Positions 576-20,804 of a stretch of 39,706 bases of DNA are shown here, piece after piece. The stretch is from a virus (taxonomy: Duplodnaviria; Caudoviricetes), in the IMG/VR virus record IMGVR_UViG_3300033109_000107, positions 1-39,706 of that record; one strand, given 5' to 3'. Under the pieces are notes generated by a model. The model had not been told where the DNA came from, ran no database searches, and saw only the letters and a program-made list of their open reading frames with translations. Made by a program: the position numbers and the translations under genes. Positions within the stretch are counted from its first letter, which is position 1. Every line of letters begins with the position of its first letter.

Positions 576-1697
576 ATGCCTACAAACAAACTCACAGACG
601 CCCGCTGCAAGCAGATCAAAGAGCCAGGCAAGCATTTCGACGGCGGGGGAATGTACCTATTCTGCGCCCCTACCGGCTCTAAGCTCTGGCGACTGGCGTA
701 CAGGGTGAATGGCAAGGCGCAAACAGCGACCTTCGGCCCATACCCCGAAGTCTCTCTAGCTGAAGCCAGATCGAAGCGTGACGCGTTCAAACGAGACTTG
801 CGTAATGGCACATTGCCCACAAAGCGGACGCGCTCTATAGCCCTATCTGACGCGATTACGCAGTATTGGGATGGGCGCATGGATTTATCCGAGTCCTACC
901 GATCCAACGCTAAACGCGGGCTGGAGATGCACCTGACCAAGCTTCTCGATACGCAGGTATCGGACATCGCGCGGGAAATGCTGCTAGACGAACTTCGCCG
1001 CATGGACGCGAAGAAGCTCTATGTCTACGTCCGTAAGGTTAGGCGATGGGCAGGGCAGGTATTCGACTGGTGCCAAGATCATGGCTACATGCAAACCAAT
1101 CCTGCGAGAGACATACGCCCGCAGACATTCTCCACTGCTCCGGTAGAACACTTCGCCGCGCTTGAGTTATCAGAGGTTCCCGAGTTCATGGCAAGGCTGA
1201 GCATGGAATCTGACCTGCAATCCGTTCTTGCGTGTAAGCTCTTGGCGCTTACTTGGGTTCGGACGAATGAGCTTCGGATGATGGAGTGGTCGGAGATTGA
1301 CGGGGATTTGTGGCGGATTCCTGCGGGGAAGATGAAGCGCAGGAGGGATCACGTTGTTCCTCTATCACGGCAGTCAGTCGATATCCTAGAGCAACTAAAA
1401 CAGCGTGCAGGGGGTTGTTATGTGTTCTCGCACCCGTATCGGTCTGATCGTCCAATGTCAGAGAACTCCATACTTTATTTGCTCTACAGGATAGGCTACA
1501 AAGGCCGGCTCACTGGTCACGGATTCCGCACCATCGGATCAACATGGGCCAATGAAAACGGATTCAACGCTGATGCTATCGAGAGGCAACTAGCGCACGT
1601 TCCTGGTGATGTTAGGTCAGTGTATAACCGGGCTGAGTATCTGGATGAAAGAAGGCGCATGCTAGAGGCGTGGGCTGACTGGTTGATGCCTGAGTGA
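576..1697 (+). CDS. int: Phage tyrosine integrase (P4/IntA-like with N-terminal arm-binding domain)
   Basis: N-terminal DGGGMYL...GSKLWRLAYR...TFGPYPEVSLAEAR arm-binding motif; catalytic residues in VRTNELR, GKMK, HGFR, LAH, VYNR. Confidence 0.95.
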   Translation: MPTNKLTDARCKQIKEPGKHFDGGGMYLFCAPTGSKLWRLAYRVNGKAQTATFGPYPEVSLAEARSKRDAFKRDLRNGTLPTKRTRSIALSDAITQYWDGRMDLSESYRSNAKRGLEMHLTKLLDTQVSDIAREMLLDELRRMDAKKLYVYVRKVRRWAGQVFDWCQDHGYMQTNPARDIRPQTFSTAPVEHFAALELSEVPEFMARLSMESDLQSVLACKLLALTWVRTNELRMMEWSEIDGDLWRIPAGKMKRRRDHVVPLSRQSVDILEQLKQRAGGCYVFSHPYRSDRPMSENSILYLLYRIGYKGRLTGHGFRTIGSTWANENGFNADAIERQLAHVPGDVRSVYNRAEYLDERRRMLEAWADWLMPE

Positions 1698-1730
1698 TTT
1701 TGTCAGCGTGTCGCATAATTCAAGTTAGCC
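1691..1730 (+). other. Putative attI-like primary recombination site heading the left cassette array
   Basis: Ends in core GTTAGCC (1724-1730); 33/40 identical to the reverse complement of 14601-14640; not an attC hairpin. Confidence 0.7.
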
Positions 1731-1731
1731 G

Positions 1732-1917
1732 TCACAACTTGGCCTCATTGCTGAACCAGTTGCTTATGCGAACTGCCATCTGGTACGCCCCTTCACTTGC
1801 CGCGCCACCAACCGAGATGTACTGGTTGACGATGGCCCAAAATCTTAAAGCGTCTTCCTCGCTTTCGAGTACCAGCGCTATCGGATTAAACGCTCCTTCC
1901 TGCTGCATCATCTTCAT
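1732..1917 (-). CDS. Hypothetical protein (cassette L1, second gene)
   Basis: ORF MKMMQQEGAFNP...; ATGA-coupled to the upstream ORF; stop lies next to the GTTAGCC core. Confidence 0.6.
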   Translation of the reverse strand: MKMMQQEGAFNPIALVLESEEDALRFWAIVNQYISVGGAASEGAYQMAVRISNWFSNEAKL

Positions 1918-2168
1918 TCGTTGCATCCTCGCGTAAATGCCTTCAGCCGCCTCAGATACACGTCGCGCCCTTCGCCGTCTTTCCACAGCGGATCGTCCAT
2001 CTGCTTGTCCAGGTGCGGGCACTCTTCCTGTGCGCACGGAACCAGTGCTCCCAGGTCATCGTCAAACAGCGCCGCAAATATCCCGCGCCCGCATCCCTTG
2101 CCGTAGCAGTTGGCGGTTATCTCCGGCTCTTGCAACCGCAGCACTACGCCGAAAATCTTGGTGCCCAT
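1914..2168 (-). CDS. Hypothetical Cys-containing protein (cassette L1, first gene)
   Basis: 84 aa ORF with GAAAGG RBS just inside the attC inverse core. Confidence 0.65.
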   Translation of the reverse strand: MGTKIFGVVLRLQEPEITANCYGKGCGRGIFAALFDDDLGALVPCAQEECPHLDKQMDDPLWKDGEGRDVYLRRLKAFTRGCNE

Positions 2169-2183
2169 ATCAACCTTTCTGCC

Positions 2184-2243
2184 GGCTAACCCGGCATTGG
2201 TTCGGACCTGCCTTCGGCAGGCCGCACAACTTGGTCGCTAGAC
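2184..2243 (+). other. attC-like site L1 (core degenerate, GCTAGAC)
   Basis: GGCTAAC-CCGGC-ATTGGTTC...CTGCC TTC GGCAG...GCACAAC-TTGGTC-GCTAGAC; the inverse core is complementary to GTTAGCC at 1724. Confidence 0.75.
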
Positions 2244-2399
2244 ATTAATCCCCGCCTCCCTAAGCGTACTTTCTTTCCACCCAACACACCTTAGACTCAA
2301 CTGGACATCAGGCGGGGGAATCTTTCCGGCTTTCCTCCAGGCTAGGAATGTCTTGCGTGAGACTCCGAGCCACTTGCGCAGGTCTGCTTGTTTAATCAT
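2238..2399 (-). CDS. Excisionase / AlpA-like recombination directionality factor (53 aa, not in ORF track)
   Basis: Manual translation MIKQADLRKWLGVSRKTFLAWRKAGKIPPPDVQLSLRCVGWKESTLREAGINV; AlpA/Xis winged-HTH pattern; AAGGA RBS; near int. Confidence 0.8.
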   Translation of the reverse strand: MIKQADLRKWLGVSRKTFLAWRKAGKIPPPDVQLSLRCVGWKESTLREAGINV

Positions 2400-2430
2400 G
2401 TACGATCCTTGATGTTATGGTGTTGTTTGC

Positions 2431-2745
2431 TCATGCCGCGCCAACCCGCGGCATCGACTTCCTCAGTCCGGCCAGCGCCTGAGAGAATCCTATGCGCCGC
2501 TTCCATTCCCTTCCATCGACAACAACGCGGAAGCAGTCGATTCGGTCAGTCTTGAAAAACTCCATGACGTGAGTTTCGTGGCCGAAGTCGAATGACTCGA
2601 CCACCAAGCGACGGCGTAGGTCGGGAAGCGGCGCTGGATAGTCCGGCGCTGATTCTTCCATGCGAGCAACGTCACGAGACCGGCGAATCGCCGCCAGTTC
2701 TTCACGACGCTGCGCTGCTTTTTTGGTCAGTCTGTACATGATCAA
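2431..2745 (-). CDS. Hypothetical protein
   Basis: 104 aa ORF co-oriented with the early left operon. Confidence 0.6.
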   Translation of the reverse strand: MIMYRLTKKAAQRREELAAIRRSRDVARMEESAPDYPAPLPDLRRRLVVESFDFGHETHVMEFFKTDRIDCFRVVVDGREWKRRIGFSQALAGLRKSMPRVGAA

Positions 2746-2760
2746 CCTTGCACGGTAGGT

Positions 2761-3051
2761 CTACTTAACGTTCGGCGTCAGCTTCACGAAGCCGCGAGCG
2801 ACCATGTAGGGGTCGCGCTCGGGGTGATATCGCCGTGCGGCGACATTCTTCGCAGGCTTCAAGCTCAGCATCCGGCGCCAGTATTTCCCGCAGGCCAGCG
2901 CCCGCTCTTGATTCTCCGCCGCGACGTAAACCGAACTGCCGCACTGCTTGCCCTTCTTGTCCACCGGGAAGACCTCCCATTGAAGTCTCTCCGGGTTCAT
3001 TCCCCACGTTCTCGGGTCGTCTCTCACAGGTCTTTCTCCATCACTCTGCAC
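2761..3051 (-). CDS. Hypothetical protein (cassette L2; start may be GTG at 3027)
   Basis: ORF ends TPNVK*, reading across core GTTCGGC (2770-2776). Confidence 0.6.
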   Translation of the reverse strand: MQSDGERPVRDDPRTWGMNPERLQWEVFPVDKKGKQCGSSVYVAAENQERALACGKYWRRMLSLKPAKNVAARRYHPERDPYMVARGFVKLTPNVK

Positions 3052-3242
3052 GGCCAGTGGTGGCCGCAGTTTGCGCAGGCTGCCGTGTCCAGCCGGGTTG
3101 TTTTCAGCGCGGCCGGCGAGCCGTTGGCCATCAGCCAGTGGTAGGCGTGTGTCCCACAGCGGGGGCAGCGCCGCTCCACCTTGGCCGGTAGCCGCCGAAC
3201 CCGTCGCTCCAGGGGGACGCCCTCCATGCCGCTTCGCGTCAT
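3024..3242 (-). CDS. Small zinc-ribbon-like protein (cassette L2)
   Basis: CPRC and CANC pairs; likely start lies within attC L2. Confidence 0.5.
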   Translation of the reverse strand: MTRSGMEGVPLERRVRRLPAKVERRCPRCGTHAYHWLMANGSPAALKTTRLDTAACANCGHHWPCRVMEKDL

Positions 3243-3272
3243 TCCGGTCGCCCCTGAGCTAGTGCGTTGGGC
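3194..3272 (+). other. attC-like site L2
   Basis: GCCGAAC-CCGTC-GCTC(C)AGG...CCTGAGC-TAGTGC-GTTGGGC; extra C in L'' box. Confidence 0.88.
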
Positions 3273-3273
3273 C

Positions 3274-3588
3274 TCACCATCCGCGCGCCACGCACAGCGC
3301 ATCGTTCACCTGTTGTTCCAGGCTCTTGTCGGCCGCATCAGGCAGGCTCACGTCGTCGCCGTCCTGGTTGCTCAGTTGCACCCACGCCGCCCCTCGCTCC
3401 ATGCACAGGTTTAATTGCCACCCTTCCGGCAGGTGTTGGCATACCTTGTTTGCCAGCGCCAGTACGAACATTTGGCCGTCGTCGGTTGTGGGTGCTGCCG
3501 GAGCCAGTCCAAGGCGTTCCAGGTTGCGAATCACGGCGTTCTCGCCAGCTCGTATCTGTGCGCTCCGAATCTCGTCGTGCAAACTCAT
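3274..3588 (-). CDS. Hypothetical protein (cassette L3)
   Basis: MSLHDEIRSAQ..., GAGGA RBS; fills the space between two attC sites. Confidence 0.7.
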   Translation of the reverse strand: MSLHDEIRSAQIRAGENAVIRNLERLGLAPAAPTTDDGQMFVLALANKVCQHLPEGWQLNLCMERGAAWVQLSNQDGDDVSLPDAADKSLEQQVNDALCVARGW

Positions 3589-3613
3589 GATCCTGTCCTC
3601 TCCGGGCGCTGAG

Positions 3614-3681
3614 GCCCAACACTTCAATCGAGGCGACCTGTCGCATAAAGCCGCGCCAGTCGCTCACCTCCAGCGTTATGC
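3614..3681 (+). other. attC-like site L3
   Basis: GCCCAAC...GTTATGC imperfect inverted repeat; GAGGCCCAAC complements GTTGGGCCTC at 3266. Confidence 0.85.
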
Positions 3682-3682
3682 C

Positions 3683-3889
3683 TCATGCTGCGCGCCAGTG
3701 AATGTTCAGGCCGAGCAACGTGGCGCGAAGCTGCTTGTATTGCCGTTGCCAGTAGAACAGTCGCGGGTGTAGCGAGAGTGAGACCTTCCACCCTTCTCGG
3801 TGCTCCCACCGTCCGCTTTCAAATCGAAACAGCGTTACCCGGCTGTCTCCTGTCGCTCTTGCGCCAATCCAGAACATCATTCGCATCAT
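3683..3889 (-). CDS. Hypothetical Trp/Arg-rich protein (cassette L4)
   Basis: 68 aa ORF with GGAG RBS between attC L3 and L4. Confidence 0.6.
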   Translation of the reverse strand: MMRMMFWIGARATGDSRVTLFRFESGRWEHREGWKVSLSLHPRLFYWQRQYKQLRATLLGLNIHWRAA

Positions 3890-4551
3890 CGTTCTCCGTT
3901 GTTGTCGCCGGCATAACCCGGCAGTCCAGCGGACGCCGTGCCGGCTCCGCTGACTTTTGCGTTGGGGGTCTTACACTTTGCTGCCAGCTCTACGAGCCAT
4001 TGCGCGAGCGCCGGCGGCGTGTGCTCGCGTTCCGACTTCGTCACCTCCGGGCGCCACCCGGCCATGCCCTTCACCAAGCGCCGACCATCTGGCAACGTCC
4101 TGTGCTGCGCTATTACGTGTGTCGCTCCGCCCAGGTGCATGGGTATCGGCGGCACGTCCGCCGGCTCGGCGCCAACGATGTAGAGAAGCGTCAACTTCTC
4201 CGCTCGGTGCCCAAACCAATGCTGAGAAATTCCGAGCGTCCAACCTCCAAATGCATCGCGCTCGCCTGGGCGTGGAAGGGCCTGCGCCGGCCAAAGAGTC
4301 GAGCCTTCCGGGTGCTCCAGCACCCCGCCGAATTCGCGCACCAGCGCCACCGCCAGCCTGGCCAGGTTGCGCTCGTCAGCGCGCACCTTTGCAAATCTTC
4401 GCAGTCGCCCCCATCCACGGCATGGCGGGTGCGCTACCACAGGCCAAGGGCCGTCGTAGGTGCGCGCATCACGCTCCATGTCATACACGTCCACGTCAGG
4501 CAGCGCCTTGTAGTTGCTGTCTGCGCGGGCAAACAAAACCGCCACGGTCAT
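3886..4551 (-). CDS. DNA cytosine-5 methyltransferase-like protein (cassette L5)
   Basis: Start MTVAVLF; VVAHPPC (motif IV-like) and GVLEHP (motif VI-like); C-terminus reads through attC L4. Confidence 0.65.
   Translation of the reverse strand: MTVAVLFARADSNYKALPDVDVYDMERDARTYDGPWPVVAHPPCRGWGRLRRFAKVRADERNLARLAVALVREFGGVLEHPEGSTLWPAQALPRPGERDAFGGWTLGISQHWFGHRAEKLTLLYIVGAEPADVPPIPMHLGGATHVIAQHRTLPDGRRLVKGMAGWRPEVTKSEREHTPPALAQWLVELAAKCKTPNAKVSGAGTASAGLPGYAGDNNGER
3911..3967 (+). other. attC-like site L4 (57 bp)
   Basis: GCATAAC-CCGGC-AGTC(C)AGC-GGA(C)GCCG TGC CGGCTCC-GCTGACT-TTTGC-GTTGGGG: canonical R''/L''/L'/R' layout with two extrahelical bases. Confidence 0.92.
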
Positions 4552-4561
4552 GAGCCGAGAC

Positions 4562-4632
4562 CCCCAACACTGCGTTGCAGGGGACGCTCCGCCGAAAAGC
4601 CGGCGGCGCGCCCCTGAACTTGGACGTTGGGC
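4562..4632 (+). other. attC-like site L5
   Basis: CCCCAAC-ACTGC-GTTGCAGG...CCTGAAC-TTGGAC-GTTGGGC. Confidence 0.88.
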
Positions 4633-4636
4633 CTCA

Positions 4637-4855
4637 TCAGCATCCACACGTAGGCGGTTGTTCCTTCCCGGCCTTGCGGAACACCTCATCCCGGAAGTCT
4701 CGGCACAGCTTGTCCAGGGTCAGCGAGTCCAGGTCGCTCAGTGGGTAGCACGGGAGTTCCTGCATCCCGTCCTGCTTCAGCCCGGGCTTTCCAACCGCCC
4801 GCACAAAGTTCGGCGTCTGGAACGGTTGCAGTTCAACTTGTAGCGTTGCTTTCAT
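4637..4855 (-). CDS. Hypothetical protein (cassette L6)
   Basis: 72 aa ORF with AAGGA RBS between attC L5 and L6. Confidence 0.7.
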   Translation of the reverse strand: MKATLQVELQPFQTPNFVRAVGKPGLKQDGMQELPCYPLSDLDSLTLDKLCRDFRDEVFRKAGKEQPPTCGC

Positions 4856-4885
4856 GTCCTTGTCCTTTCTTCGTAGTCACCAGAG

Positions 4886-4972
4886 GCCCAACCCTACGGT
4901 CGACATCGCTCCCTTCGGTCGCTGGACCTCGCGCGATAAGGCCGCGCGAGGCCGGTCACCTACACGTTCGGC
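4886..4972 (+). other. attC-like site L6
   Basis: GCCCAAC...CCTCGCGCG ATAAGGC CGCGCGAGG...GTTCGGC. Confidence 0.82.
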
Positions 4973-5123
4973 GTCACTTCCCAATCGGTGCAGTCGTCAA
5001 TGTCGATGCGTAGGTCGTAACCGTTCTCGCGCTCAAAATGTTTCGTCAGCCATACGTCTCCCATTCGGCTGCAACCGATGCAGCGGTAACGCTTGCCGTC
5101 CTTGTAGGTGCAAAACAGCTTTC
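4966..5123 (-). repeat. 158 bp exact inverted copy of 14450-14607
   Basis: Base-by-base comparison; identity stops at the GTT/AAC core. Confidence 0.92.
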
Positions 5124-5159
5124 TTCAGCATTTCCGATTATCACTTTTTCAGCCATCAT
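4967..5159 (-). pseudogene. Chimeric cassette remnant: N-terminus MMAEKVIIGNAE fused out of frame to the 3' half of the 14332-14610 gene
   Basis: RBS and ATG at 5159; junction at 5123; the cassette's two cores are non-complementary. Confidence 0.65.
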
Positions 5160-5181
5160 CACTCCGTAGTTACGTTTTGCC

Positions 5182-5251
5182 TGCCAACCCGTCGCTCAAG
5201 CGGGACGCGCCGCGATAAAGCTGCGTCGCGCCCCTTAGCTCTACGTTAGGG
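5182..5251 (+). other. attC-like site L7
   Basis: TGCCAAC-CCGTC-GCTCAAGC-GGGACGCG...CGCGCCCCTTAGC-TCTAC-GTTAGGG. Confidence 0.88.
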
Positions 5252-5255
5252 AACT

Positions 5256-5666
5256 TCATTTCACGATGCCGTATTTCCGCGTAGCCCCTGCCACTGCCGG
5301 ATTAACGACCCTCGATTTCCATCCGTCGCGGGTCTTTTGTTGGAACCGCTCGGCGAATGTTTCCTCGCGCAGCAACTTGCCGCCCATGAGACGATCCAGC
5401 CGCTGCACACCCTTACGCACGTTCCCGCTTCCGTTCCCTGCATTGCAAAGCGTGCGCAGCCGCAGGCGCAAATCGGGCGGAAACGAATCAAACTCCCTCG
5501 CTACCAGTTCGACCGCGCTTTCGTGGCTCAGTTGGGTAAAAATCGACTGCGCCACCTTGTCGGTGTTCTTCGAGCTAAAGAAGCCCGCTCCGTTCTCTCG
5601 CGGTACATACGCCTTCCACTGCGATAGCGGCACGTTAAACGCCAGCATCTCTAATGCTATGCTCAT
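5256..5666 (-). CDS. Hypothetical protein (cassette L8)
   Basis: MSIALEMLAF..., GGAG RBS; 136 aa between attC L7 and L8. Confidence 0.7.
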   Translation of the reverse strand: MSIALEMLAFNVPLSQWKAYVPRENGAGFFSSKNTDKVAQSIFTQLSHESAVELVAREFDSFPPDLRLRLRTLCNAGNGSGNVRKGVQRLDRLMGGKLLREETFAERFQQKTRDGWKSRVVNPAVAGATRKYGIVK

Positions 5667-5684
5667 TCTTGTTCTCCGCCAGTT

Positions 5685-5771
5685 CCCTAACCTTACGTTG
5701 CAGGGGACGCCGATTAAGCGTCGTTGGTCTTGGCGGGCGCTTCTAAGGCGCCCCTGAACTCCACGTTGGGC
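5685..5771 (+). other. attC-like site L8
   Basis: CCCTAAC-CTTAC-GTTGCAGG...CCTGAAC-TCCAC-GTTGGGC; AGTTCCCTAAC complements GTTAGGGAACT at 5245. Confidence 0.88.
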
Positions 5772-6016
5772 ATTTTGGTCTTTTTCACCGGCACAGCCGC
5801 TGCCAGTGCGTTGCACATCGCCTCACCAGCAGCGAACAGCGCCTGTAGTTCAGGCGTCCTCTCGCCTGGCTGGACGCACTCCTCCCGCAGCCGCCCGTCG
5901 TTGGTGGCGATGTAAACCCATGTCGGAGCATTGCTCCAGCCGGGGCCGTTACAGCGTTCCGGTACTACGGCGACAACCCGCTCGCCGTAGGCCAGTTTGA
6001 TGGTTCGTGCCTTCAT
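5714..6016 (-). CDS. Hypothetical protein (cassette L9)
   Basis: GGAGGGAG RBS; C-terminus PNVEFRG... is encoded by attC L8. Confidence 0.7.
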   Translation of the reverse strand: MKARTIKLAYGERVVAVVPERCNGPGWSNAPTWVYIATNDGRLREECVQPGERTPELQALFAAGEAMCNALAAAVPVKKTKMPNVEFRGALEAPAKTNDA

Positions 6017-6029
6017 TCTCCCTCCTGAT

Positions 6030-6088
6030 GCCCAACAGGGCCATGCACCGGACCCGCTGAAGCGGGCCGGTGATGTTCGACGTTAGGC
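6030..6088 (+). other. attC-like site L9 (59 bp)
   Basis: GCCCAAC-AGGGC-CATGCACC-GGACCCGCT GA AGCGGGCC-GGTGATG-TTCGAC-GTTAGGC. Confidence 0.88.
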
Positions 6089-6120
6089 CCCAATGCCGAA
6101 GCACCGGGGCCGCCCCATGT

Positions 6121-6333
6121 TCAGAACCGCATCGCCTCGGCAATGTCACGAATCCGCATCCCAAGCAGCGGCGCAAGCGTCTTCTTGCTCTCTTCCAGAC
6201 GCTCAATCTCTTGGCGCAGCGTGGAAATCTTGGCGTCGATGTTCTCTTCCACGGTCGGGTTGTGGTCGCGCCCGCCAATCAGTTGCCCTGCTGCCCTGTT
6301 TTCGCATTTCGCCATCTGTGCTTGTTCGTACAT
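6121..6333 (-). CDS. Hypothetical coiled-coil protein (cassette L10)
   Basis: MYEQAQMAK..., AGGAG RBS. Confidence 0.7.
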   Translation of the reverse strand: MYEQAQMAKCENRAAGQLIGGRDHNPTVEENIDAKISTLRQEIERLEESKKTLAPLLGMRIRDIAEAMRF

Positions 6334-6366
6334 TTCGATTTCTCCTGCCCGTCTCAAGGGTGCCGG

Positions 6367-6447
6367 GCCTAACCCGTCGATCAACACGGACGCCCTTCGG
6401 CGTCGCTGCGCGCCGCCTACGTGCGCCGGTTATCTAGGTCGTTATCA
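6367..6447 (+). other. attC-like site L10 (last in left array)
   Basis: GCCTAAC-CCGTC-GATCAACACGGACGCC...TGCGCCGGTTATC-TAGGTC-GTTATCA. Confidence 0.85.
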
Positions 6448-10733: not shown

Positions 10734-11532
10734 TCGAATCCTCAAGGAAACCATCTGCACTAGCGAAGAGGTCGAAGCCCTCTCACCAGAGCAAGAGGTT
10801 TTCTTCTATCGCTTGATGGTCGTATGCGACGACTTTGGTCTCATGGATGCGCGGCCCGCAATACTGAAAGCACGGTGCTATCCATTGAAATCAATTGATA
10901 TCAAGCGAATTCAATTGAACTTGGATGTTTTGCAGCAGGTTGGGTTGATTTCAACCTACATGGTGGCCGGGAAACCGTACCTGCACATAGCAAATTGGGA
11001 AAAGCACCAGCAGATCAGGGCGAAGCGGGCGAAATACCCCATGCCAAGTGAATCTGATAGCACTTGCAATCAATTGATATCAGATGCACCCGTAATCCAA
11101 TCCAATCCAATCCAATCCGAATCCAATCCGAATCCAATCCAATCAGCGGGGAAAAAGGCATCCCCGCAGTTTGAGCAAGCATGGACAGAGTACCCGCGTA
11201 AGGGCGACACAAACAAGCGTGGTTCTCTAAAAGCATGGAACGCAAGGGTCAGTGATGGCGAAGACCCGGATGCGATGTTGGCTGGAGTCATTCGTTACGC
11301 GGCCTACTGTCGTGCCATGCAAACCGAGAACGCCTACATCAAGCAGCCGGCAACATTCTTCGGCCCGGACAAGCATTACCTGACCTCTTGGGAAATCCCG
11401 CAAAGGAGTCCGCATGCAAACCATCGGAACACTGCTGCCGACACTATCGCAGCCTTCACAGGACAACGACAGCCAGCCGTACCAGAAGGGAGTTCCGGAG
11501 TCGTGGTTGAGGGCAGCGGAACTCGTGTTTGA
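10726..11532 (+). CDS. Phage replication initiator protein
   Basis: MPNRILKETI...DDFG N-terminal domain, low-complexity linker, FEQAWTEYPRK...YIKQPATFF C-terminal domain. Confidence 0.8.
   Translation: MPNRILKETICTSEEVEALSPEQEVFFYRLMVVCDDFGLMDARPAILKARCYPLKSIDIKRIQLNLDVLQQVGLISTYMVAGKPYLHIANWEKHQQIRAKRAKYPMPSESDSTCNQLISDAPVIQSNPIQSESNPNPIQSAGKKASPQFEQAWTEYPRKGDTNKRGSLKAWNARVSDGEDPDAMLAGVIRYAAYCRAMQTENAYIKQPATFFGPDKHYLTSWEIPQRSPHANHRNTAADTIAAFTGQRQPAVPEGSSGVVVEGSGTRV
11094..11144 (+). repeat. AATCC(G) tandem microrepeat within the replication gene
   Basis: aatccaatccaatccaatccaatccgaatccaatccgaatccaatccaatc. Confidence 0.85.
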
Positions 11533-11890: not shown

Positions 11891-12109
11891 ATGAACCCTG
11901 CGAAAGACTCTGCGGCGAAGTCGAAGAACCGGAGCCAATGGAAACGAATCGACAAGTACGCGATACAAAACCCGCCGTGGCGAATATCAATGTCATACGT
12001 CGACGGAAACACGATGTACGTAGTTTGGAAAGACGGGACGCCGGGGCCGCTGGCGTTTAAGGAAGATTTGGACGACTGCTTTGATTGGATCGAACATGAA
12101 AAAGACTGA
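11891..12109 (+). CDS. Hypothetical protein
   Basis: ORF in the right early operon; start uncertain. Confidence 0.45.
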   Translation: MNPAKDSAAKSKNRSQWKRIDKYAIQNPPWRISMSYVDGNTMYVVWKDGTPGPLAFKEDLDDCFDWIEHEKD

Positions 12110-12305
12110 ATGGTTTCCTTGCTCTGTAAAACCGGTTAGGCCGGGGTTGTATGAGGTTGTTCTTAGTTCTGGTTTCGATCATCCTGAGCTTTGTAGTTTC
12201 AATGGTGGAAGGTGGCGAAAATGGAATGACTGTAAAGCTAAGGCAGTCGGAGAAGCGCGTCCTGGCTATATGCCTGACGACTACTGGCGCGGAGTGAAGA
12301 AATGA
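12096..12305 (+). CDS. Hypothetical phage protein
   Basis: MKKTEWFPCSVKPVRPGLYEV...WRG, a common phage small-protein pattern. Confidence 0.65.
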   Translation: MKKTEWFPCSVKPVRPGLYEVVLSSGFDHPELCSFNGGRWRKWNDCKAKAVGEARPGYMPDDYWRGVKK

Positions 12306-12700
12306 ATAACTACCCAGCCTGCTTCAACTCCCAAGCTGAATACGACCTCTGGAAAGATGCGCGCCATATCAGCGCAACACGCTGCCAGCCATGCACAGAT
12401 TGCACGGTCGATTACAAGGTAGAAATGTGCCTACAAGACCGCTGCGCCCATCCTGAAGTCCGCTTCCGATTGGATGAGGATGGATTCACGGAAGGTTACT
12501 TCCCTCCTATTGCCAATGGTTATGAGATTGCAGACAAAGCGATGCGGATGATCCTGGGTGGCCCGATCAAGATCAGCCACTTCAACCGGAAATTCAAAAT
12601 CACGCCTGTTGATTTTCCGGTCGCTGGTGATGTTGTTGGCGTGTATGCCATCGGTGTGACGGTAGGACAGATTGAGCAGGACATGCTGGAGGTTCTGTGA
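12302..12700 (+). CDS. Hypothetical Cys-rich protein
   Basis: ATGA-coupled ORF with CQPCTDC motif. Confidence 0.65.
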   Translation: MNNYPACFNSQAEYDLWKDARHISATRCQPCTDCTVDYKVEMCLQDRCAHPEVRFRLDEDGFTEGYFPPIANGYEIADKAMRMILGGPIKISHFNRKFKITPVDFPVAGDVVGVYAIGVTVGQIEQDMLEVL

Positions 12701-13005
12701 ATCGCTGCCCAACCTGCGGAGCGCCAGAGAAACTTAGTGACCCTCAACGTGACAGATATTGGGCAATGCTCCAAGGCTACTGCAAGCACCCGAAGATGAT
12801 CGCGCAAGGGGTGAAGCCTTCTGGCCTGCATGAATACCTTGCTGACCTCTACCTGCCGCGCAAAGAGGTAAAGACGCCGATGGGGGTGAAGAGTGTTCGT
12901 GGATCGGTCAGCAGGAAGGCCGGGCCGGGGAAGATGACGATGAGCGAGTATATGGATCAAGTCGAAGCCTGGGCAGTTGAGTGTGGATTGTGGGAGGCGG
13001 AATGA
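12697..13005 (+). CDS. NinB-like protein
   Basis: SDPQRDRYWAML...MSEYMDQVEAWAVE resembles NinB; precedes NinG. Confidence 0.65.
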   Translation: MNRCPTCGAPEKLSDPQRDRYWAMLQGYCKHPKMIAQGVKPSGLHEYLADLYLPRKEVKTPMGVKSVRGSVSRKAGPGKMTMSEYMDQVEAWAVECGLWEAE

Positions 13006-13403
13006 AGGGGCCATCGCTTCCAGCCCTCCAAGCAAAAGCAGACAAGATCATGTCCATTTACATCCGCATGAAGTACGCAGATGCAGATGGCTTGGTTAAG
13101 TGCGTTTCCTGTGGCCGAACGTTTCACTGGAAGGATGTTGATTGCGGGCACTTTGTTCCCAAGTCTCGCGGGGCGGCTATCCGGTACGTTGAAGAAAATG
13201 TGCATCCCGAGTGTAGAGGTTGTAACTCGTTCAATGATGGGCACTTGATCGGTTATACCCTGTACATGATCGATATGTACGGAAGGGAAAAGATTGACGA
13301 ACTCAAGCGAGAAGCAAGGAAGGTAATGAAGCCCTCAGAGAAGCGGGCGGTGGTCGAAGAAGCTATTGCTTACTACACGCAAGCGTTGAAAGCACTTGCA
13401 TGA
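13002..13403 (+). CDS. ninG: NinG/Rap-like recombination endonuclease
   Basis: YIRMKYAD...CVSCG...DCGHF...RYVEENVHPECRGCN. Confidence 0.85.
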   Translation: MKGPSLPALQAKADKIMSIYIRMKYADADGLVKCVSCGRTFHWKDVDCGHFVPKSRGAAIRYVEENVHPECRGCNSFNDGHLIGYTLYMIDMYGREKIDELKREARKVMKPSEKRAVVEEAIAYYTQALKALA

Positions 13404-13612
13404 TCTGCGGCAACAAAAACAAGCCTACCCTAGACGGCTATTGGGCGCAGAACGGCACAGAAGTAGTGATGGATGTCGAGCTAGGCCCGATTGTGGTTAG
13501 GAAGGCTGTATGGATAGAGGATCACATGTCACGTGAATGCAGGTTCGATCAGAAGACGGAAGAGATGTGCGGAGGATGTGAGAGGTTTAACTGCGAGGTA
13601 ACCGGCGCATGA
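13400..13612 (+). CDS. Hypothetical protein
   Basis: Coupled ORF; last codons (FNCEVTGA) are encoded by attC R2. Confidence 0.6.
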   Translation: MICGNKNKPTLDGYWAQNGTEVVMDVELGPIVVRKAVWIEDHMSRECRFDQKTEEMCGGCERFNCEVTGA

Positions 13613-13663
13613 CGGCGAGCGCAGCGATGCCGTCAGGCGTCCGTGTTGACCGTGTAGTTATGC
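13585..13663 (-). other. attC-like site R2
   Basis: - strand GCATAAC-TACAC-GGTCAACACGGACGCC...TGCGCCGGTTACC-TCGCA-GTTAAAC; very similar to attC L10. Confidence 0.85.
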
Positions 13664-14256
13664 GCCTGGCTGCGCTGTTCGTGCAGCCGGACGGATGCTA
13701 TGCGGGACTGCCCGGCGTTGATGCGTGGCCGGAGCATCGAGACGCGAGGCGCTACGCGGGACCGCTGCCGGTTGTTGCGCACCCGCCCTGCCAATTGTGG
13801 GGCGCGATGGCGAACGTGAACTATGCCCGATGGGGCGGCGAGCACAACCGGCCTGGGAATGATGGTGGTTGCTTCTCTTCGGCGCTTGAAAGCGTGCGGC
13901 GGTTTGGTGGGGTGCTGGAGCACCCAGCAAAGACGAAGGCATGGGCCGCGCACGGACTGGCGCAACCGACCGGAATTGGCTGGCAGCGAACCATTGATGG
14001 TGGGTGGGTGTGCGAGGTTTGGCAGAGCGCCTACGGCCACCGGGCGAACAAGGCGACATGGCTTTACTACCACGGCACGAACCCGCCATTTGAACTGCGG
14101 TGGGCGAGGCCGGAAGGGACGCACCAGATTGGGTTTCACGACCAACGAGGGAAGGCGGCAAACAAGCCGACCCTCGGCAAGCGAGAGGCGAACGCTACGC
14201 CTTTGGAATTTCGGGACGAACTGCTGCGCCTGGCGATGATGGCGCATAACGACTGA
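13609..14256 (+). CDS. DNA cytosine-5 methyltransferase-like protein (cassette R2; alternative start 13660)
   Basis: LAALF, VVAHPPC, GVLEHP, YGHRANKATWLY; paralogue of 3886-4551. Confidence 0.65.
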   Translation: MTASAAMPSGVRVDRVVMRLAALFVQPDGCYAGLPGVDAWPEHRDARRYAGPLPVVAHPPCQLWGAMANVNYARWGGEHNRPGNDGGCFSSALESVRRFGGVLEHPAKTKAWAAHGLAQPTGIGWQRTIDGGWVCEVWQSAYGHRANKATWLYYHGTNPPFELRWARPEGTHQIGFHDQRGKAANKPTLGKREANATPLEFRDELLRLAMMAHND

Positions 14257-14307
14257 GTTGTGGGGCGGGCCGCTTGCGGCACGTCCCACACGAACGACGG
14301 GTTCGGC
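14244..14307 (-). other. attC-like site R1
   Basis: - strand GCCGAAC-CCGTC-GTTCGTGT-GGGACG...GCCGC AA GCGGC...CCCACAAC-TCAGTC-GTTATGC. Confidence 0.82.
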
Positions 14308-14331
14308 GGCACTGGAAACGGAGGACAAGCG

Positions 14332-14610
14332 GTGAAACACATTGACGACTGGCTGGATGACCCGACAACCGGCCCGGCTGACGTAAAGGAATGGCTTGAG
14401 CATTTCCGCAGGCCGGCGATTGACAAGGACTACAAGTGGCTGGCAGCGCGAAAGCTGTTTTGCACCTACAAGGACGGCAAGCGTTACCGCTGCATCGGTT
14501 GCAGCCGAATGGGAGACGTATGGCTGACGAAACATTTTGAGCGCGAGAACGGTTACGACCTACGCATCGACATTGACGACTGCACCGATTGGGAAGTGAC
14601 GCCGAACTAG
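14332..14610 (+). CDS. Hypothetical protein (cassette R1)
   Basis: GGAGG RBS and GTG start; ends TPN* at the core. Confidence 0.75.
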   Translation: MKHIDDWLDDPTTGPADVKEWLEHFRRPAIDKDYKWLAARKLFCTYKDGKRYRCIGCSRMGDVWLTKHFERENGYDLRIDIDDCTDWEVTPN

Positions 14611-14640
14611 ATTTATACGACACGCCGACAAAAACACTCA
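14601..14640 (-). other. Putative attI-like site heading the right cassette array
   Basis: - strand tgagtgtttttgtcggcgtgtcgtataaatctaGTTCGGC, matching 1691-1730. Confidence 0.7.
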
Positions 14641-14779
14641 ACCAAGGAGAACAAATGAACGAACCATGTAAAGGATGCCGGTATCTCTCTTGGCTATGGG
14701 GCTGTCGAATCTGCATGAAGCACGATTACCAAGCGGGGGTAAGGTTCAGCAAGTGTCAAGACTACAAGGAACGAGACTG

Positions 14780-15280
14780 ATGGGTTTTAGCGAACACTTG
14801 GCTGAATGCGTTGTTTCCTCCGACCTCCAATCCAAAGACTCATCAATCCGCGATGTTGAGTTCGTTGCTGCGCTCTCTGGTGCTTCGTCACTTGGGGCTG
14901 ACCTACTCCGGGCGAAGGACTACGACGCAAAGGCCCTGAAACGGGCGATCCTGGCCCTTAGCGCAAGAGTTAGGAAGAGACTCAAGCTCTCCATGTCACC
15001 CGCTCAGTTACTTTCAACCACGGCGATATTTGAGCTAATGCAGTGGCAGTGCCGGGACTGTTGGGGAGCGTCTGAGCAGATCATCGGCGGAATACGGGTA
15101 ACTTGCCCGACATGCGGAGGGGTAGGGGTGCATCGGTGGTCAGATAAGGATAGGGCCAATACCTCGGGGTTCCACGTCGAGACTTGGCATAAGTGGGCGA
15201 AGAAGTATGAGATCGTGCTATCGATGGCGAGGGGCCATGACGGGAACACAGAGCATGCGGCTAGGGTGAGGTTGGGGTGA
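14780..15280 (+). CDS. Late antitermination protein Q-like
   Basis: CRDCWG and CPTCGGVG zinc finger; immediately upstream of a strong promoter and the late genes. Confidence 0.65.
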   Translation: MGFSEHLAECVVSSDLQSKDSSIRDVEFVAALSGASSLGADLLRAKDYDAKALKRAILALSARVRKRLKLSMSPAQLLSTTAIFELMQWQCRDCWGASEQIIGGIRVTCPTCGGVGVHRWSDKDRANTSGFHVETWHKWAKKYEIVLSMARGHDGNTEHAARVRLG

Positions 15281-15314
15281 CATACCACAAAACAGCCCAT
15301 CCGTGTATCAATCC

Positions 15315-15343
15315 TTGACATTGAACGATAAATAGTGTATAAG
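15315..15343 (+). promoter_or_regulatory. Late promoter (PR'-like)
   Basis: TTGACA-17-TATAAG. Confidence 0.75.
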
Positions 15344-15488
15344 GTATCCTGTACGCTGATAGATCGCTTGTGTCGAGCGAAAAACAATAGGGCGGGCTGA
15401 AGAGGCCCGCGCTCGTCTGTAGCATCTATACGCATGGCGATTCACTGTGTGTTGAGGCGCAGTTATCTGGCCAAGAGTCGCCAGCCGT

Positions 15489-15620
15489 ATGGGTGCAATG
15501 CGTAGGCTGTACGCCCGTTGCAGTGGGCCTTGGTTGCCAAAACGTCCGGGGGCGTGTCCGGGGAGCGTTGCACGATGCGACGGTTAACGCCAAAGCCAGG
15601 ATCAGCTCTGGCGCACCCAT
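15489..15620 (+). ncRNA. Candidate structured, tRNA-shaped ncRNA
   Basis: Closing stem ATGGGTGC/GCACCCAT plus three internal arms. Confidence 0.45.
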
Positions 15621-15721
15621 TACTTGCACGCCAACCGAGTTATGCCCCTACTGGGGAACGCCAGAACTCGCTGTCAGATAACCAAAGCTGACGCCGGATT
15701 AGAGTAACCGGCACCAATATC

Positions 15722-15792
15722 GCGGCCTACTCGGAGGAGAGTAACAGCCTTCCAAGCTGGCAGATAGGGTTCGACTCCCTAGGGTCGCTCCA
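15722..15792 (+). tRNA. tRNA-Gly(TCC), atypical D arm
   Basis: Acceptor GCGGCCT/GGGTCGC, anticodon loop CT-TCC-AA, TAGGG-TTCGACT-CCCTA T arm, TCCA end. Confidence 0.75.
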
Positions 15793-15800
15793 TGAAGTTT

Positions 15801-15880
15801 GGTGCGCGGGACTGCTTGGCGTGGTCGCTTGCCTGTCACGCAAGAGAATCAGCGGGGTTCGATTCCCCGGCGCACTGCCA
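15801..15880 (+). tRNA. tRNA-Asp(GTC)
   Basis: Acceptor GGTGCGC/GCGCACT, CTTGC-CT-GTC-AC-GCAAG anticodon arm, CGGGG-TTCGATT-CCCCG T arm, GCCA end. Confidence 0.85.
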
Positions 15881-15912
15881 CCCTCCACACGCGCATGGGT
15901 AACACCGTGCCC

Positions 15913-15934
15913 AACCCGCTTCGGCGGGTTTTTT
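15913..15934 (+). terminator. Rho-independent terminator
   Basis: AACCCGC-TTCG-GCGGGTT followed by TTTT. Confidence 0.85.
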
Positions 15935-15946
15935 CATTTCTAGCCC

Positions 15947-16291
15947 ATGAAAATCAAGGAATTCGTTAAGCCTAGCGAGCAAATGGCGCATATCGGCAGG
16001 CACAAGTGGTACGTGTCTCGCTTGATTGAGCTTTCCAAAGACCTGCCTGTTATGGAAGTTCCATTGAACCATTTAAGTGTTTGGGCCAAGTACGACATTT
16101 CTTTGCGTGAGTTGGTTGGGCACATGAAGGCAGTGCTAGAGGCTGATTTGCAATACCCGATCATCCTTGATGAAGATGGCGAGGTTATGGATGGCCGCCA
16201 CAGGATTATGAAGGCCATCCTGAATGGACACGAAACAATCAAAGCGGTGCGGTTTGATGAGAACCCGCCTCCATGCCAAACAACTGAATAG
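15947..16291 (+). CDS. ParB/Srx N-terminal-like protein
   Basis: ADLQYPIILDEDGEVMDGRHRIMKA motif. Confidence 0.7.
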   Translation: MKIKEFVKPSEQMAHIGRHKWYVSRLIELSKDLPVMEVPLNHLSVWAKYDISLRELVGHMKAVLEADLQYPIILDEDGEVMDGRHRIMKAILNGHETIKAVRFDENPPPCQTTE

Positions 16292-16505
16292 CAGCATGGA
16301 AGAGTACGAAATAACAATAGACCTGCAATGCCCTCACTCAGTAATCCGAAGCCGCGGGCTAAGTGTCTTTGAAATGCTCGACCTTCCAGAGACAGAGGCT
16401 CTTGAGGAAAAGCAAGAGGCCGGATCATTGACCACTGAAGGCATGATCCATACGGAGGCGTAAATGGCCTGCAAGAAGAAACCGCCAAAGCCCAAGAAGT
16501 AAGCC

Positions 16506-18516: not shown

Positions 18517-20804
18517 GAGACGCAGACCTCATCGCCATCATCGGCTCGCATCGTCGGGATGCACTCGGCTATGAAGACGGCGGCCTGTCCAATGAGCGGT
18601 CTAAGGCGCTTGACCACTATCACGGTCGGCCCTATGGCAACGAGGTAGAGGGGCGCTCGCATGTAGTCTCCAAGGACTTGTCAGAGGCTGTGGATTGGGC
18701 TATGCCCGCCATCCTGAAGGTCTTTGTGCAGTCCGGGAACATTGCTGAATTTGAGCCGATTGGCCCCGAAGACGAGGCCCTGGCGCAGCAAGAGTCCGAT
18801 GTTACGAATAAAGTGTTCATGCAGGATAACAACGGCTTTATGGTGCTGCACGACGCCATTAAAGACGCACTCCTGCTGAAGAATGGCTACATCAAGCACT
18901 TTTGGGAAGAGACAGAAAGCGCCGAGGCCACGCAATACACCGGCCTAACACTGGATGAGGTTGCTAAGCTGTTCAGTGATCTTGAAGGCGAGGGGGCAAC
19001 TGTTACGGTTGAGGGGCAAGATAGCCGATCCGAGCAGATTGAAACTCCGATTGGTCCGCAGCAAATCGAGGTGTTTGACGTAAAGCTGCGCGTGACTCGC
19101 AAAGAGGGCAAGGTCAAGTGCGTTCCTGTTCCTCCCGAGGAAATCCGCGTCTCCAAGCGTTGCACTGGCCCGCTGAGTACCTCCCCGTTTGTTGAGCATG
19201 TCACTCGCAAGACGCGGACCGATCTGCTTGAAATGGGAATGCCGCGTTCGTTTGTGGATCGTCTGCCGGCGTTCTCTGACCAAGACAACAACACTGAAAA
19301 GCTGTCGCGGGATTCCGTTACAGACGAGTCTAACGCGGGCGGACTGGCGTTCATCGACAAATCGATGGATGAGGTTGAGTACTGCGAAGCCTACATTCGC
19401 GTAGATTGGGATGGCGACGGGATCGCCGAGCTTCGCAAGGTTGTCACTGTCGCTAATCAGATTCCTCCTGGCGAAGAATGGAACGAGGAAATAGACGCGC
19501 TGCCTATCTCTGGTGGCGTTCCTAAGCGTATTCCTCATCGCCATATTGGCGAGTCTCTGGACGATGATATCTCCGACCTTCAGGAGATCAAGACCACGCT
19601 TGTTCGGCAGATGCTGGACAACATCTACGCCACGAACAACAACCAATGGCTGGTCAATGAGCGGGTAAATCTCCCCGACTTCATGCAGTCGCTGCCAGGT
19701 GGAATCAAGCGCATCAAGGGCATGGAGCCTGTTGCTGGCGCTGTTGAGCCGGTCATCGCTACGCCGATCATGCAGCAGATTATGCCGGCGATTGATTATA
19801 TCGACGCGACCAAAGAGGGGCGCACTGGCATTAATCGGGCTACTACGGGGCTTGATCCTGATGTGCTGAAGCAAAGCACTAAGGGCGCGTTCATGGAGAA
19901 CTTGAACCGCGCCAGCCAGAAGATCGAGATGATTACCCGCATGCTGGCCGAGACGCTTGTTCGTCCGACCATGCTTGCCGTCCATGCGCTGCTCATCAAG
20001 CACCAAGATAAGCCGATGGTAACTCGGCTGCGCGGGAAGTTCGTGCAGGTTAATCCGCAGGAATGGCGGCGTCGTACCGATATCGTGCTGAAGGTTGGTA
20101 TTGGTACTGGCAACGAAGAAGAGAAGCGCCAGAAGCTGCTGATGCTGACGCAGATGCAAGACCGGCTGATGCCGCTTGGCCTTGTCGGTCCGATGCAGGC
20201 GTATTCGATCTTTGCTGACATGGCTAGGGCGATGGGATTCGATATGCCGGAAAAATACGCCATGTCGCCCGAGTCGCCAGAGTTCCAGCAAGCGCAACAG
20301 ATGCCGCGCCCACCAGACCCCATAGTGCAGGTTAAGCAGATGGAATTGCAGGCGGATGCTCAGAAGTTCCAAGCTGAGACTGTCGTTGAACACCAGAACA
20401 TGCAGATGCAGGCTGAACTTGATCGCCAAAAGGCCGAGTTCAACATGAAGCAAGAGCAACTGCGCAGCCAGAACGATGTCGCTATCGAGCAGGCCAAGAT
20501 TCAAGCGCAGGCAGAACTAGAGCGATGGAAGGCTGAGCTTGATGCACAAGTGGCTCTAGAGAAGGCCAGGATTGACGCTGCCGCAAAGCTAGAAATTGAG
20601 CAAGTCAAAGCAGCCAACCAGCCTCCCCCTGCTGCTGTGAGCGTGAATAACGACCCGAACGGTGATTTTGCCAAGTCTCTGGAAACCATCATTCAGCGAT
20701 CAGAGCAAAACCAGCAGCAAGTGCTTGGGGCAATTGTTGATGCCCTTTCCCGTCCTAAAACAATCGTTCGCGGTCAGGATGGCCGCGCTATCGGAGTTCA
20801 GTAA
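18513..20804 (+). CDS. Portal protein (P22-like with long C-terminal coiled coil)
   Basis: 763 aa after terL; Q/E-rich helical C-terminus. Confidence 0.88.
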   Translation: MRDADLIAIIGSHRRDALGYEDGGLSNERSKALDHYHGRPYGNEVEGRSHVVSKDLSEAVDWAMPAILKVFVQSGNIAEFEPIGPEDEALAQQESDVTNKVFMQDNNGFMVLHDAIKDALLLKNGYIKHFWEETESAEATQYTGLTLDEVAKLFSDLEGEGATVTVEGQDSRSEQIETPIGPQQIEVFDVKLRVTRKEGKVKCVPVPPEEIRVSKRCTGPLSTSPFVEHVTRKTRTDLLEMGMPRSFVDRLPAFSDQDNNTEKLSRDSVTDESNAGGLAFIDKSMDEVEYCEAYIRVDWDGDGIAELRKVVTVANQIPPGEEWNEEIDALPISGGVPKRIPHRHIGESLDDDISDLQEIKTTLVRQMLDNIYATNNNQWLVNERVNLPDFMQSLPGGIKRIKGMEPVAGAVEPVIATPIMQQIMPAIDYIDATKEGRTGINRATTGLDPDVLKQSTKGAFMENLNRASQKIEMITRMLAETLVRPTMLAVHALLIKHQDKPMVTRLRGKFVQVNPQEWRRRTDIVLKVGIGTGNEEEKRQKLLMLTQMQDRLMPLGLVGPMQAYSIFADMARAMGFDMPEKYAMSPESPEFQQAQQMPRPPDPIVQVKQMELQADAQKFQAETVVEHQNMQMQAELDRQKAEFNMKQEQLRSQNDVAIEQAKIQAQAELERWKAELDAQVALEKARIDAAAKLEIEQVKAANQPPPAAVSVNNDPNGDFAKSLETIIQRSEQNQQQVLGAIVDALSRPKTIVRGQDGRAIGVQ

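Follow-up and report, generated by a model that had tools for sequence, protein, structure and literature searches.

Reversed integron cassettes among the rightward early genes of a temperate phage, probably serviced by the integrase of another phage

The systems closest to the locus described here are the phage CALINs of Qi et al. (2023), who reported 17 of them and found IntI1 active on phage attC (PMC9892861, in the text available). Like our arrays, these are attC clusters without intI in phages, with methyltransferase cargo. Antisense genes, paired mirror arrays within early operons, att sites that punctuate genes and a family of phage IntI that has an attI of its own all go unmentioned in the available text, where the complete integrons are fragments captured from bacterial ones (PMC9892861). 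One of its examples, MW202573, has 52 nt of att DNA in common with our sequence, and when tested here its four attC proved antisense to the annotated genes. Classical integrons, both class 1 and sedentary chromosomal, resemble our locus in having attI, attC with R and L boxes and extrahelical bases, G|TT crossovers, the core rule and an enzyme of the IntI family. Our locus departs from them in its antisense genes, the absence of a visible Pc, a newest cassette that would be promoter-distal, the lack of intI in cis and the presence of two attI per genome. Cassettes outside a full integron and expressed from nearby promoters are also described, in the accessible part of the source, for attG insertion and SALINs (Loot et al., 10.1101/2022.09.11.507474); here, by contrast, the head is a conserved 34-nt member of the attI family rather than a minimal GWT motif, orientation is consistent and the cargo is of phage type. 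The mobile regulatory cassettes of T4-type phages (PMC2839356), compared by title alone, likewise appear to be small phage genes swapped modularly at repeated elements, and are promoter-type elements according to that title. The accessible text of PMC13366799 reports no integrons in phages. Phage CALINs and att anatomy are already known; the reversed layout and the phage IntI/attI family were not found in the literature searched, where only Qi et al. treated phage integrons and whose scope left out most subscription journals and bioRxiv supplements.

We analysed a whole 39.7-kb provirus record (the window; 54% complete by CheckV) with a lambdoid gene order comprising a P4-like integrase (576-1697), xis, ssb, a replication gene (10726), ninB, ninG, terminase and portal. 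The host is probably a betaproteobacterium, judging by the named relatives of the R2 protein and of the phage IntI described below (Dechloromonas, Betaproteobacteria and Gallionellaceae). We consider it likely that the window carries a two-cassette integron array inserted in reverse among the rightward early genes of a temperate phage, probably read from an early promoter and probably reshuffled by the IntI of another phage in the same host (Table 1).

Table 1. Features of the right array, its flanks and the mirror array on the left
Feature	Coordinates	Strand	Details
Upstream flank gene	13400..13612	+	70 aa, orphan, after ninG; reads through last core
attC of R2	13585..13663	-	79 nt; bottom strand is +; three extrahelical bases
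Cassette R2	13591..14249	-	659 bp; core GTTATGCGCC / inverse core GGCGCATAAC
R2 gene	13609..14256	+	215 aa; alternative start 13660; phrog_12600; antisense to cassette
attC of R1	14244..14307	-	64 nt; bottom strand is +; contains stop codon of R2 gene
Cassette R1	14250..14606	-	357 bp; core GTTCGGC / inverse core GCCGAAC
R1 gene	14332..14610	+	92 aa; antisense to cassette; GGAGG ribosome site 5' of gene
attI-type site	14607..14640	-	head of right array; crossover G14607/T14606
Downstream flank gene	14655..14780	+	41 aa, Cys-rich; followed by Q-position gene 14783-15280
Second attI-type site	1691..1724	+	head of left array; abuts stop of phage integrase
Left mirror array	1725..6447	+	one cassette 1725-2243 and, past the xis region, nine more at 2770-6447; - strand genes
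R1 copy	4966..5123	+	158 nt, exact; from G of G|TT; identical to 14450-14607

The right array has integron anatomy with its genes reversed. An earlier note, made from the sequence alone, had listed on the minus strand an attI-like site, R1, an attC, R2 and a second attC, with both cassettes obeying the core/inverse-core rule. Every part was recovered in that order, the attI-type site spanning 14640-14607, and core and inverse core are complementary over 8 nt in R1 and 10 nt in R2. What the note did not state is that the genes lie on the plus strand, antisense to the cassettes; this departs from the usual layout, in which a top-strand gene precedes its attC. R''/R' cores, an L box, spacers and a bottom-strand extrahelical G are all present, extrahelical bases set the cassette polarity, and crossovers fall at G14607|T, G14250|T and G13591|T. 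With at least two attC and no intI nearby, the array is a CALIN, headed by an attI-type site in both sequence and position. The leader behind this site (14620-14655) resembles the intI leader of loci L146/L147, as if a small gene had replaced intI. The gene at 14783-15280 is taken as Q from its position.

A model trained on phage sites recovers both right-hand attC. Our structural scanner looked for AAC, a 5-nt spacer, an L box with one extra base, a stem and GTT; at a score of at least 13 it returned 10 sites (8 on the plus strand in the left operon, 2 on the minus strand in the right array), with a background of 0.27 sites per genome at that threshold in 30 dinucleotide shuffles and correct polarity on three known integron controls (class 1, Vibrio and Shewanella). 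Trained on 14 bacterial-type attC, a covariance model picked up 8 sites on the left but scored the right array weakly, with 12.8 bits (E 0.59) for the R2 attC and just a 20-nt piece of the R1 attC. A second model, built from 87 attC at 20 other phage loci, scored 12 sites of the window between 24 and 49 bits, each of them on the bottom strand as predicted, and the best remaining hit reached 12.6 bits; the R1 attC had 48.5 bits and the R2 attC 30.2 bits. The minus-strand covariance search suggested in the earlier note is positive with the phage-trained model and weak with the bacterial one. In the phage alignment, which was fitted to the structure, the L box is 95% paired and seven of seven pairs show two-sided changes. 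The R2 attC has a fold z of -3.66 and a predicted recombinogenic share of about 0.64; the R1 attC is predicted to prefer a non-recombinogenic fold (constrained -11.5 versus free -18.6 kcal/mol).

Reversed orientation recurs at other phage loci. In both window arrays the genes occupy the attC bottom strand and are co-oriented with the phage early genes. When each distinct cassette that follows the core rule was scored for orientation, antisense, sense and unclear cases numbered 10, 1 and 4 at R1 loci, 20, 2 and 13 at R2 loci, and 21, 4 and 21 at intI loci, a count that miscalls window cassette 3961-4632 as sense (PHROG puts its gene on the opposite strand). The bacterial-type controls (L160, L169, L171 and L172) gave 0 antisense, 16 sense and 11 unclear. 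Around 80 viral R2 homologs, attC were antisense in 69 cases and sense in 4. In another phage, Virus Rctr41k (KX853513, 4680-10101), a gene annotated xerD is IntI-like and points the same way as an array of six attC, whose cassettes are sense.

Att sites also punctuate the genes they border. The right attI-type site supplies the stop codon of the R1 gene (14608-14610, plus strand), and an ATGA overlap inside the R2 attC joins the end of gene 13400 to the start of the R2 gene; an empty site would put an in-frame stop for gene 13400 right at the joint. Of 37 antisense genes at the various loci, 20 end past the core, with AAC in frame every time, although 164 of 167 cores leave a second frame open as well. 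These cassettes are not fully independent.

The array heads match an attI family found beside phage-borne integrases. Right and left heads are identical at 29 of 34 nt, and the motif recurs at the array heads of L032 (20 nt), L131/L133 and L137 (25 nt, ahead of a cassette). No attC lies behind five of eight viral and two of three genome matches; the matches in L046 and L047, which have no attC, were put down to chance. One ORF at the R2 locus L052 is an integron integrase (473 bits on TIGR02249, cut-off 265) that faces away from its array, and an R2 homolog is the first cassette at its attI. Relatives of this IntI, which is 55% to IntI1, occur in 28 viral loci; 18 of these have the attI motif at a distance of 72-106 nt from the start of intI, a phage integrase adjoins intI in 9 of 11 loci checked, and one locus is a complete 37-kb genome with terminal repeats. 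The motif resembles an Xer/dif site, an identity set aside given its fixed distance from intI genes. A matrix of 18 intI-linked sites (10 distinct), picked by the motif that the window shares, ranked the left head first (24.6) and the right head second (17.4) in the window, ahead of the next site at 10.2; on 40 shuffles it gave a mean of 12.4 and a maximum of 20.7, above the score of the right head. Judged by sequence, the right attI-like site is a member of the attI family tied to phage-borne integrases. Available text on attI describes recognition by sequence by the cognate IntI (PMC4792948) and L and R boxes 4-5 bp apart (PMC12614218), which the 4-nt spacer here fits. In a tree with six controls the motif-bearing integrases fall on one side (93/88), a split with long control branches and no bacterial sister groups; they are a candidate phage-only group.

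The window itself yielded no intI: the record has no TIGR02249 match and no tblastn match, and its own integrase is P4-like, a result limited to the part in hand because the record is 54% complete. Nor was an intact intI found in 13 array-bearing records searched whole (G004, G005 and G006-G015, with the window's own record G000 as the 13th; the intI-bearing set is not counted), most of them incomplete. The R2-related locus L053 retains an intI stub by its attI. An intI-bearing phage, L143, also encodes a reverse transcriptase (18979-19974).

Homology among phages runs to cassette borders. In 8 of the 13 viral loci with nucleotide homology to R1 (7 of them distinct), the similarity ends at base 14607 and the DNA upstream is unrelated, and core and inverse core change together in the R1 loci L032, L034, L035/36 and L037. 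The contigs homologous to R1 carry phage recombination, replication or tail genes. For R2, all 11 closest of 80 viral homologs begin at the same G|TT, and homology runs from the core to the homolog's own attC in L049, L051, L053, L054, L056 and L057/58. An own attC was found for 10 of the 80; many homologs retain the core without an attC, and most below about 80% identity are plain phage genes. Two intI phages that are 99% identical with the same IntI, L142 and L143, differ by whole cassettes whose block ends lie at or in att sites, some of them inside similar attC and not at G|TT. This pair serves as a proxy for the comparison of close relatives that the earlier note proposed. Cassette sharing is sparse, with a full-length counterpart among the 47 cassettes of intI loci for just one of the 49 internal ones at loci lacking intI; left cassette 2770-3272 of the window matches a whole cassette of the intI phage L152 (87%).

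Searches with the flanking genes turned up no close relative of the window and no empty site. The Q-position gene had no relatives in viral contigs and one spurious 21-aa match in metagenomes; gene 13400 recovered only itself. Relatives of ninG (65-69%) proved to be another phage group, with no clean empty joint in its 7 loci. That group has a variable spot after the Q-position gene (L001 3200-3255, L005 6937-7005), with an antisense cassette in L001 and L005/L006, a PAPS-reductase-like gene in L005/L006, and no attC in L002, L004 and L007. A relative in run X2, forming a small share of that run, ends at 14628 and is uninformative. No excised joint occurs in the source-run contigs, and a plasmid search with the array gave no match.

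The left operon carries a mirror array of 10 attC, bearing out the earlier note's claim that both divergent early operons hold an array with identical logic. As evidence, each array does not stand apart from the other, since a single attI ancestor and one cassette are common to both. The core rule holds over 8-10 nt in 11 of 12 window cassettes. Its sole breaker is the chimeric cassette 4966-5251, in which the R1 start adjoins a DNA-methyltransferase cassette at the 5' end of the latter; the R1 copy is fused to the tail of that cassette (93% to L147). Source-run contigs contain all four junctions of the 158-nt duplicate at 73-87x, with a repeat contig at 122x, so an assembly artefact was rejected, while phasing across the repeat is unproven. 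These inverted pairs (attI 1724/14607; the 158-nt repeat 4966-5123/14450-14607) could invert the immunity/replication segment, which contigs cannot phase. The first left cassette has core GTTAGCC and inverse core GGCTAAC, and its degenerate attC (2184-2243) ends in GCT, not GTT; xis follows it, outside any cassette. A second head, before the nine-cassette run (2745-2776), is unlike the attI motif and similar to the heads of L049, L051 and L054, and an attC left-arm remnant (2431-2460) closes the gene at 2431-2745. The left cassette 3961-4632 holds a second phrog_12600 gene, 40% to R2.

The cassette proteins say less about function. R1 matched nothing in PHROG, NCBIfam or Pfam and had only an Atlas score of 0.76. 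The earlier note had called R2 MTase-like, which finds weak support: H40, P41, P42 and C43 are invariant in 37 sequences, giving the catalytic Pro-Cys motif, and the top four matches of its predicted fold are C5 DNA methyltransferases (Z 5.9-6.4, below the noise level of Z 8; rmsd 4.9-6.2; 153-169 aligned). The consensus begins AALFVQPDGCY and lacks the glycine-rich SAM-binding motif I of DNA cytosine-C5 methyltransferases; Foldseek gave E>0.02, and R2 had no match among solved-structure sequences. A degenerate cytosine-C5 methyltransferase fold is possible, going by the predicted model.

Our preferred reading is a phage-adapted integron serviced in trans, because this incomplete record holds no intI. 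An IntI supplied in trans would excise cassettes at attC and insert them at attI. Expression would come from the rightward phage early transcript, and new cassettes would therefore land promoter-distal; the antisense genes could not use a Pc on the attI side. Searches found no plus-strand terminator before 15913 and no promoter consensus, and the interval 12000-16500 contained nothing of sigma-70 type. Repeats within the replication gene (10876-10923 and 11044-11140), probable origin iterons, and a GC-skew turn near 9.5-10 kb would mark a likely origin between the arrays, so that both attC bottom strands would be lagging-strand templates, favouring excision. A lagging-strand effect of this kind is described in the available text of PMC5371416. 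One-off capture of a bacterial integron fragment, against which the earlier note had argued, is unlikely because the genes are antisense and come from phage families, and because entire cassettes reappear in other phages.

Other readings differ over what moves the cassettes. The arrays might be a frozen relic, assembled by IntI in an intI-bearing ancestor, with early genes now changing by deletion and homologous exchange; the lack of intI in this part-complete record, the degenerate attC at 2184-2243, the chimeric cassette, the predicted misfolding of the R1 attC and the many R2 homologs with a core and no attC would all suit it. We think it unlikely, since the two R1 copies are 100% identical and start exactly at G|TT, which speaks for a recent move, 11 of 12 cassettes keep 8-10 nt of core complementarity, and the R2 attC is predicted to fold well. 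Slightly less probable again is a host chromosomal IntI using the heads as secondary, attG-type insertion sites. Available accounts have IntI inserting cassettes at GWT genome sites (10.1101/2022.09.11.507474) and IntI1 recombining phage attC (PMC9892861), and several phage arrays have other heads; yet the two window heads have 29 of 34 nt in common and both resemble the attI that adjoins phage IntI genes, a likeness far beyond a GWT motif, the 20-nt motif has just 3 matches in 185,579 genomes with none beside intI, and bacterial-type arrays hold sense genes.

Least credible, at the far end of improbable, is that the hairpins are homology linkers or replication-slippage points at which phage recombination proteins shuffle genes without IntI. 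The arrays do flank ssb, annealing and nin genes, and some L142/L143 block ends fall within similar attC, not at G|TT. Nevertheless, where the neighbouring DNA is unrelated, homology ends right at the G|TT base, and L-box pairing with compensatory change and extrahelical bases would be useless for homologous exchange.

More tentatively, with confidence a little short of even, the trans-serviced integron may be one instance of an integron economy run by betaproteobacterial temperate phages themselves. Such phages would have their own IntI/attI lineage and reversed cassettes of phage genes, read by early promoters and punctuated by att sites; integrase-less members would plant two cognate attI, one per early operon, and freeload on a co-resident IntI, and recombination between the inverted attI could flip the central 12.9 kb. 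Homologous or illegitimate recombination is the usual explanation for the mosaic, fast-turning early accessory genes of lambdoid phages. Phage cassettes would offer a named, testable site-specific route for this turnover, with a candidate enzyme, attI and attC identified. R2 also gives a view of cassette origin, as one clade of an ordinary phage gene family gained att borders and most relatives lack them. If true, the reversed expression gradient and the sharing of an integrase among phages would be new integron biology.

Several features of the surrounding DNA and cargo deserve record. An HNH gene (10190 region) lies upstream of the replication gene. Downstream of the Q-position gene, 15722-15789 gives a weak tRNA match (31.8 bits), the only kind of match in an Rfam search, and 15390-15720 is more structured-looking DNA. 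PAPS-reductase-family and DNA-methyltransferase genes recur as cassette cargo in L140, L149, L037 and L006, and clear DNA methyltransferases are carried by other arrays.
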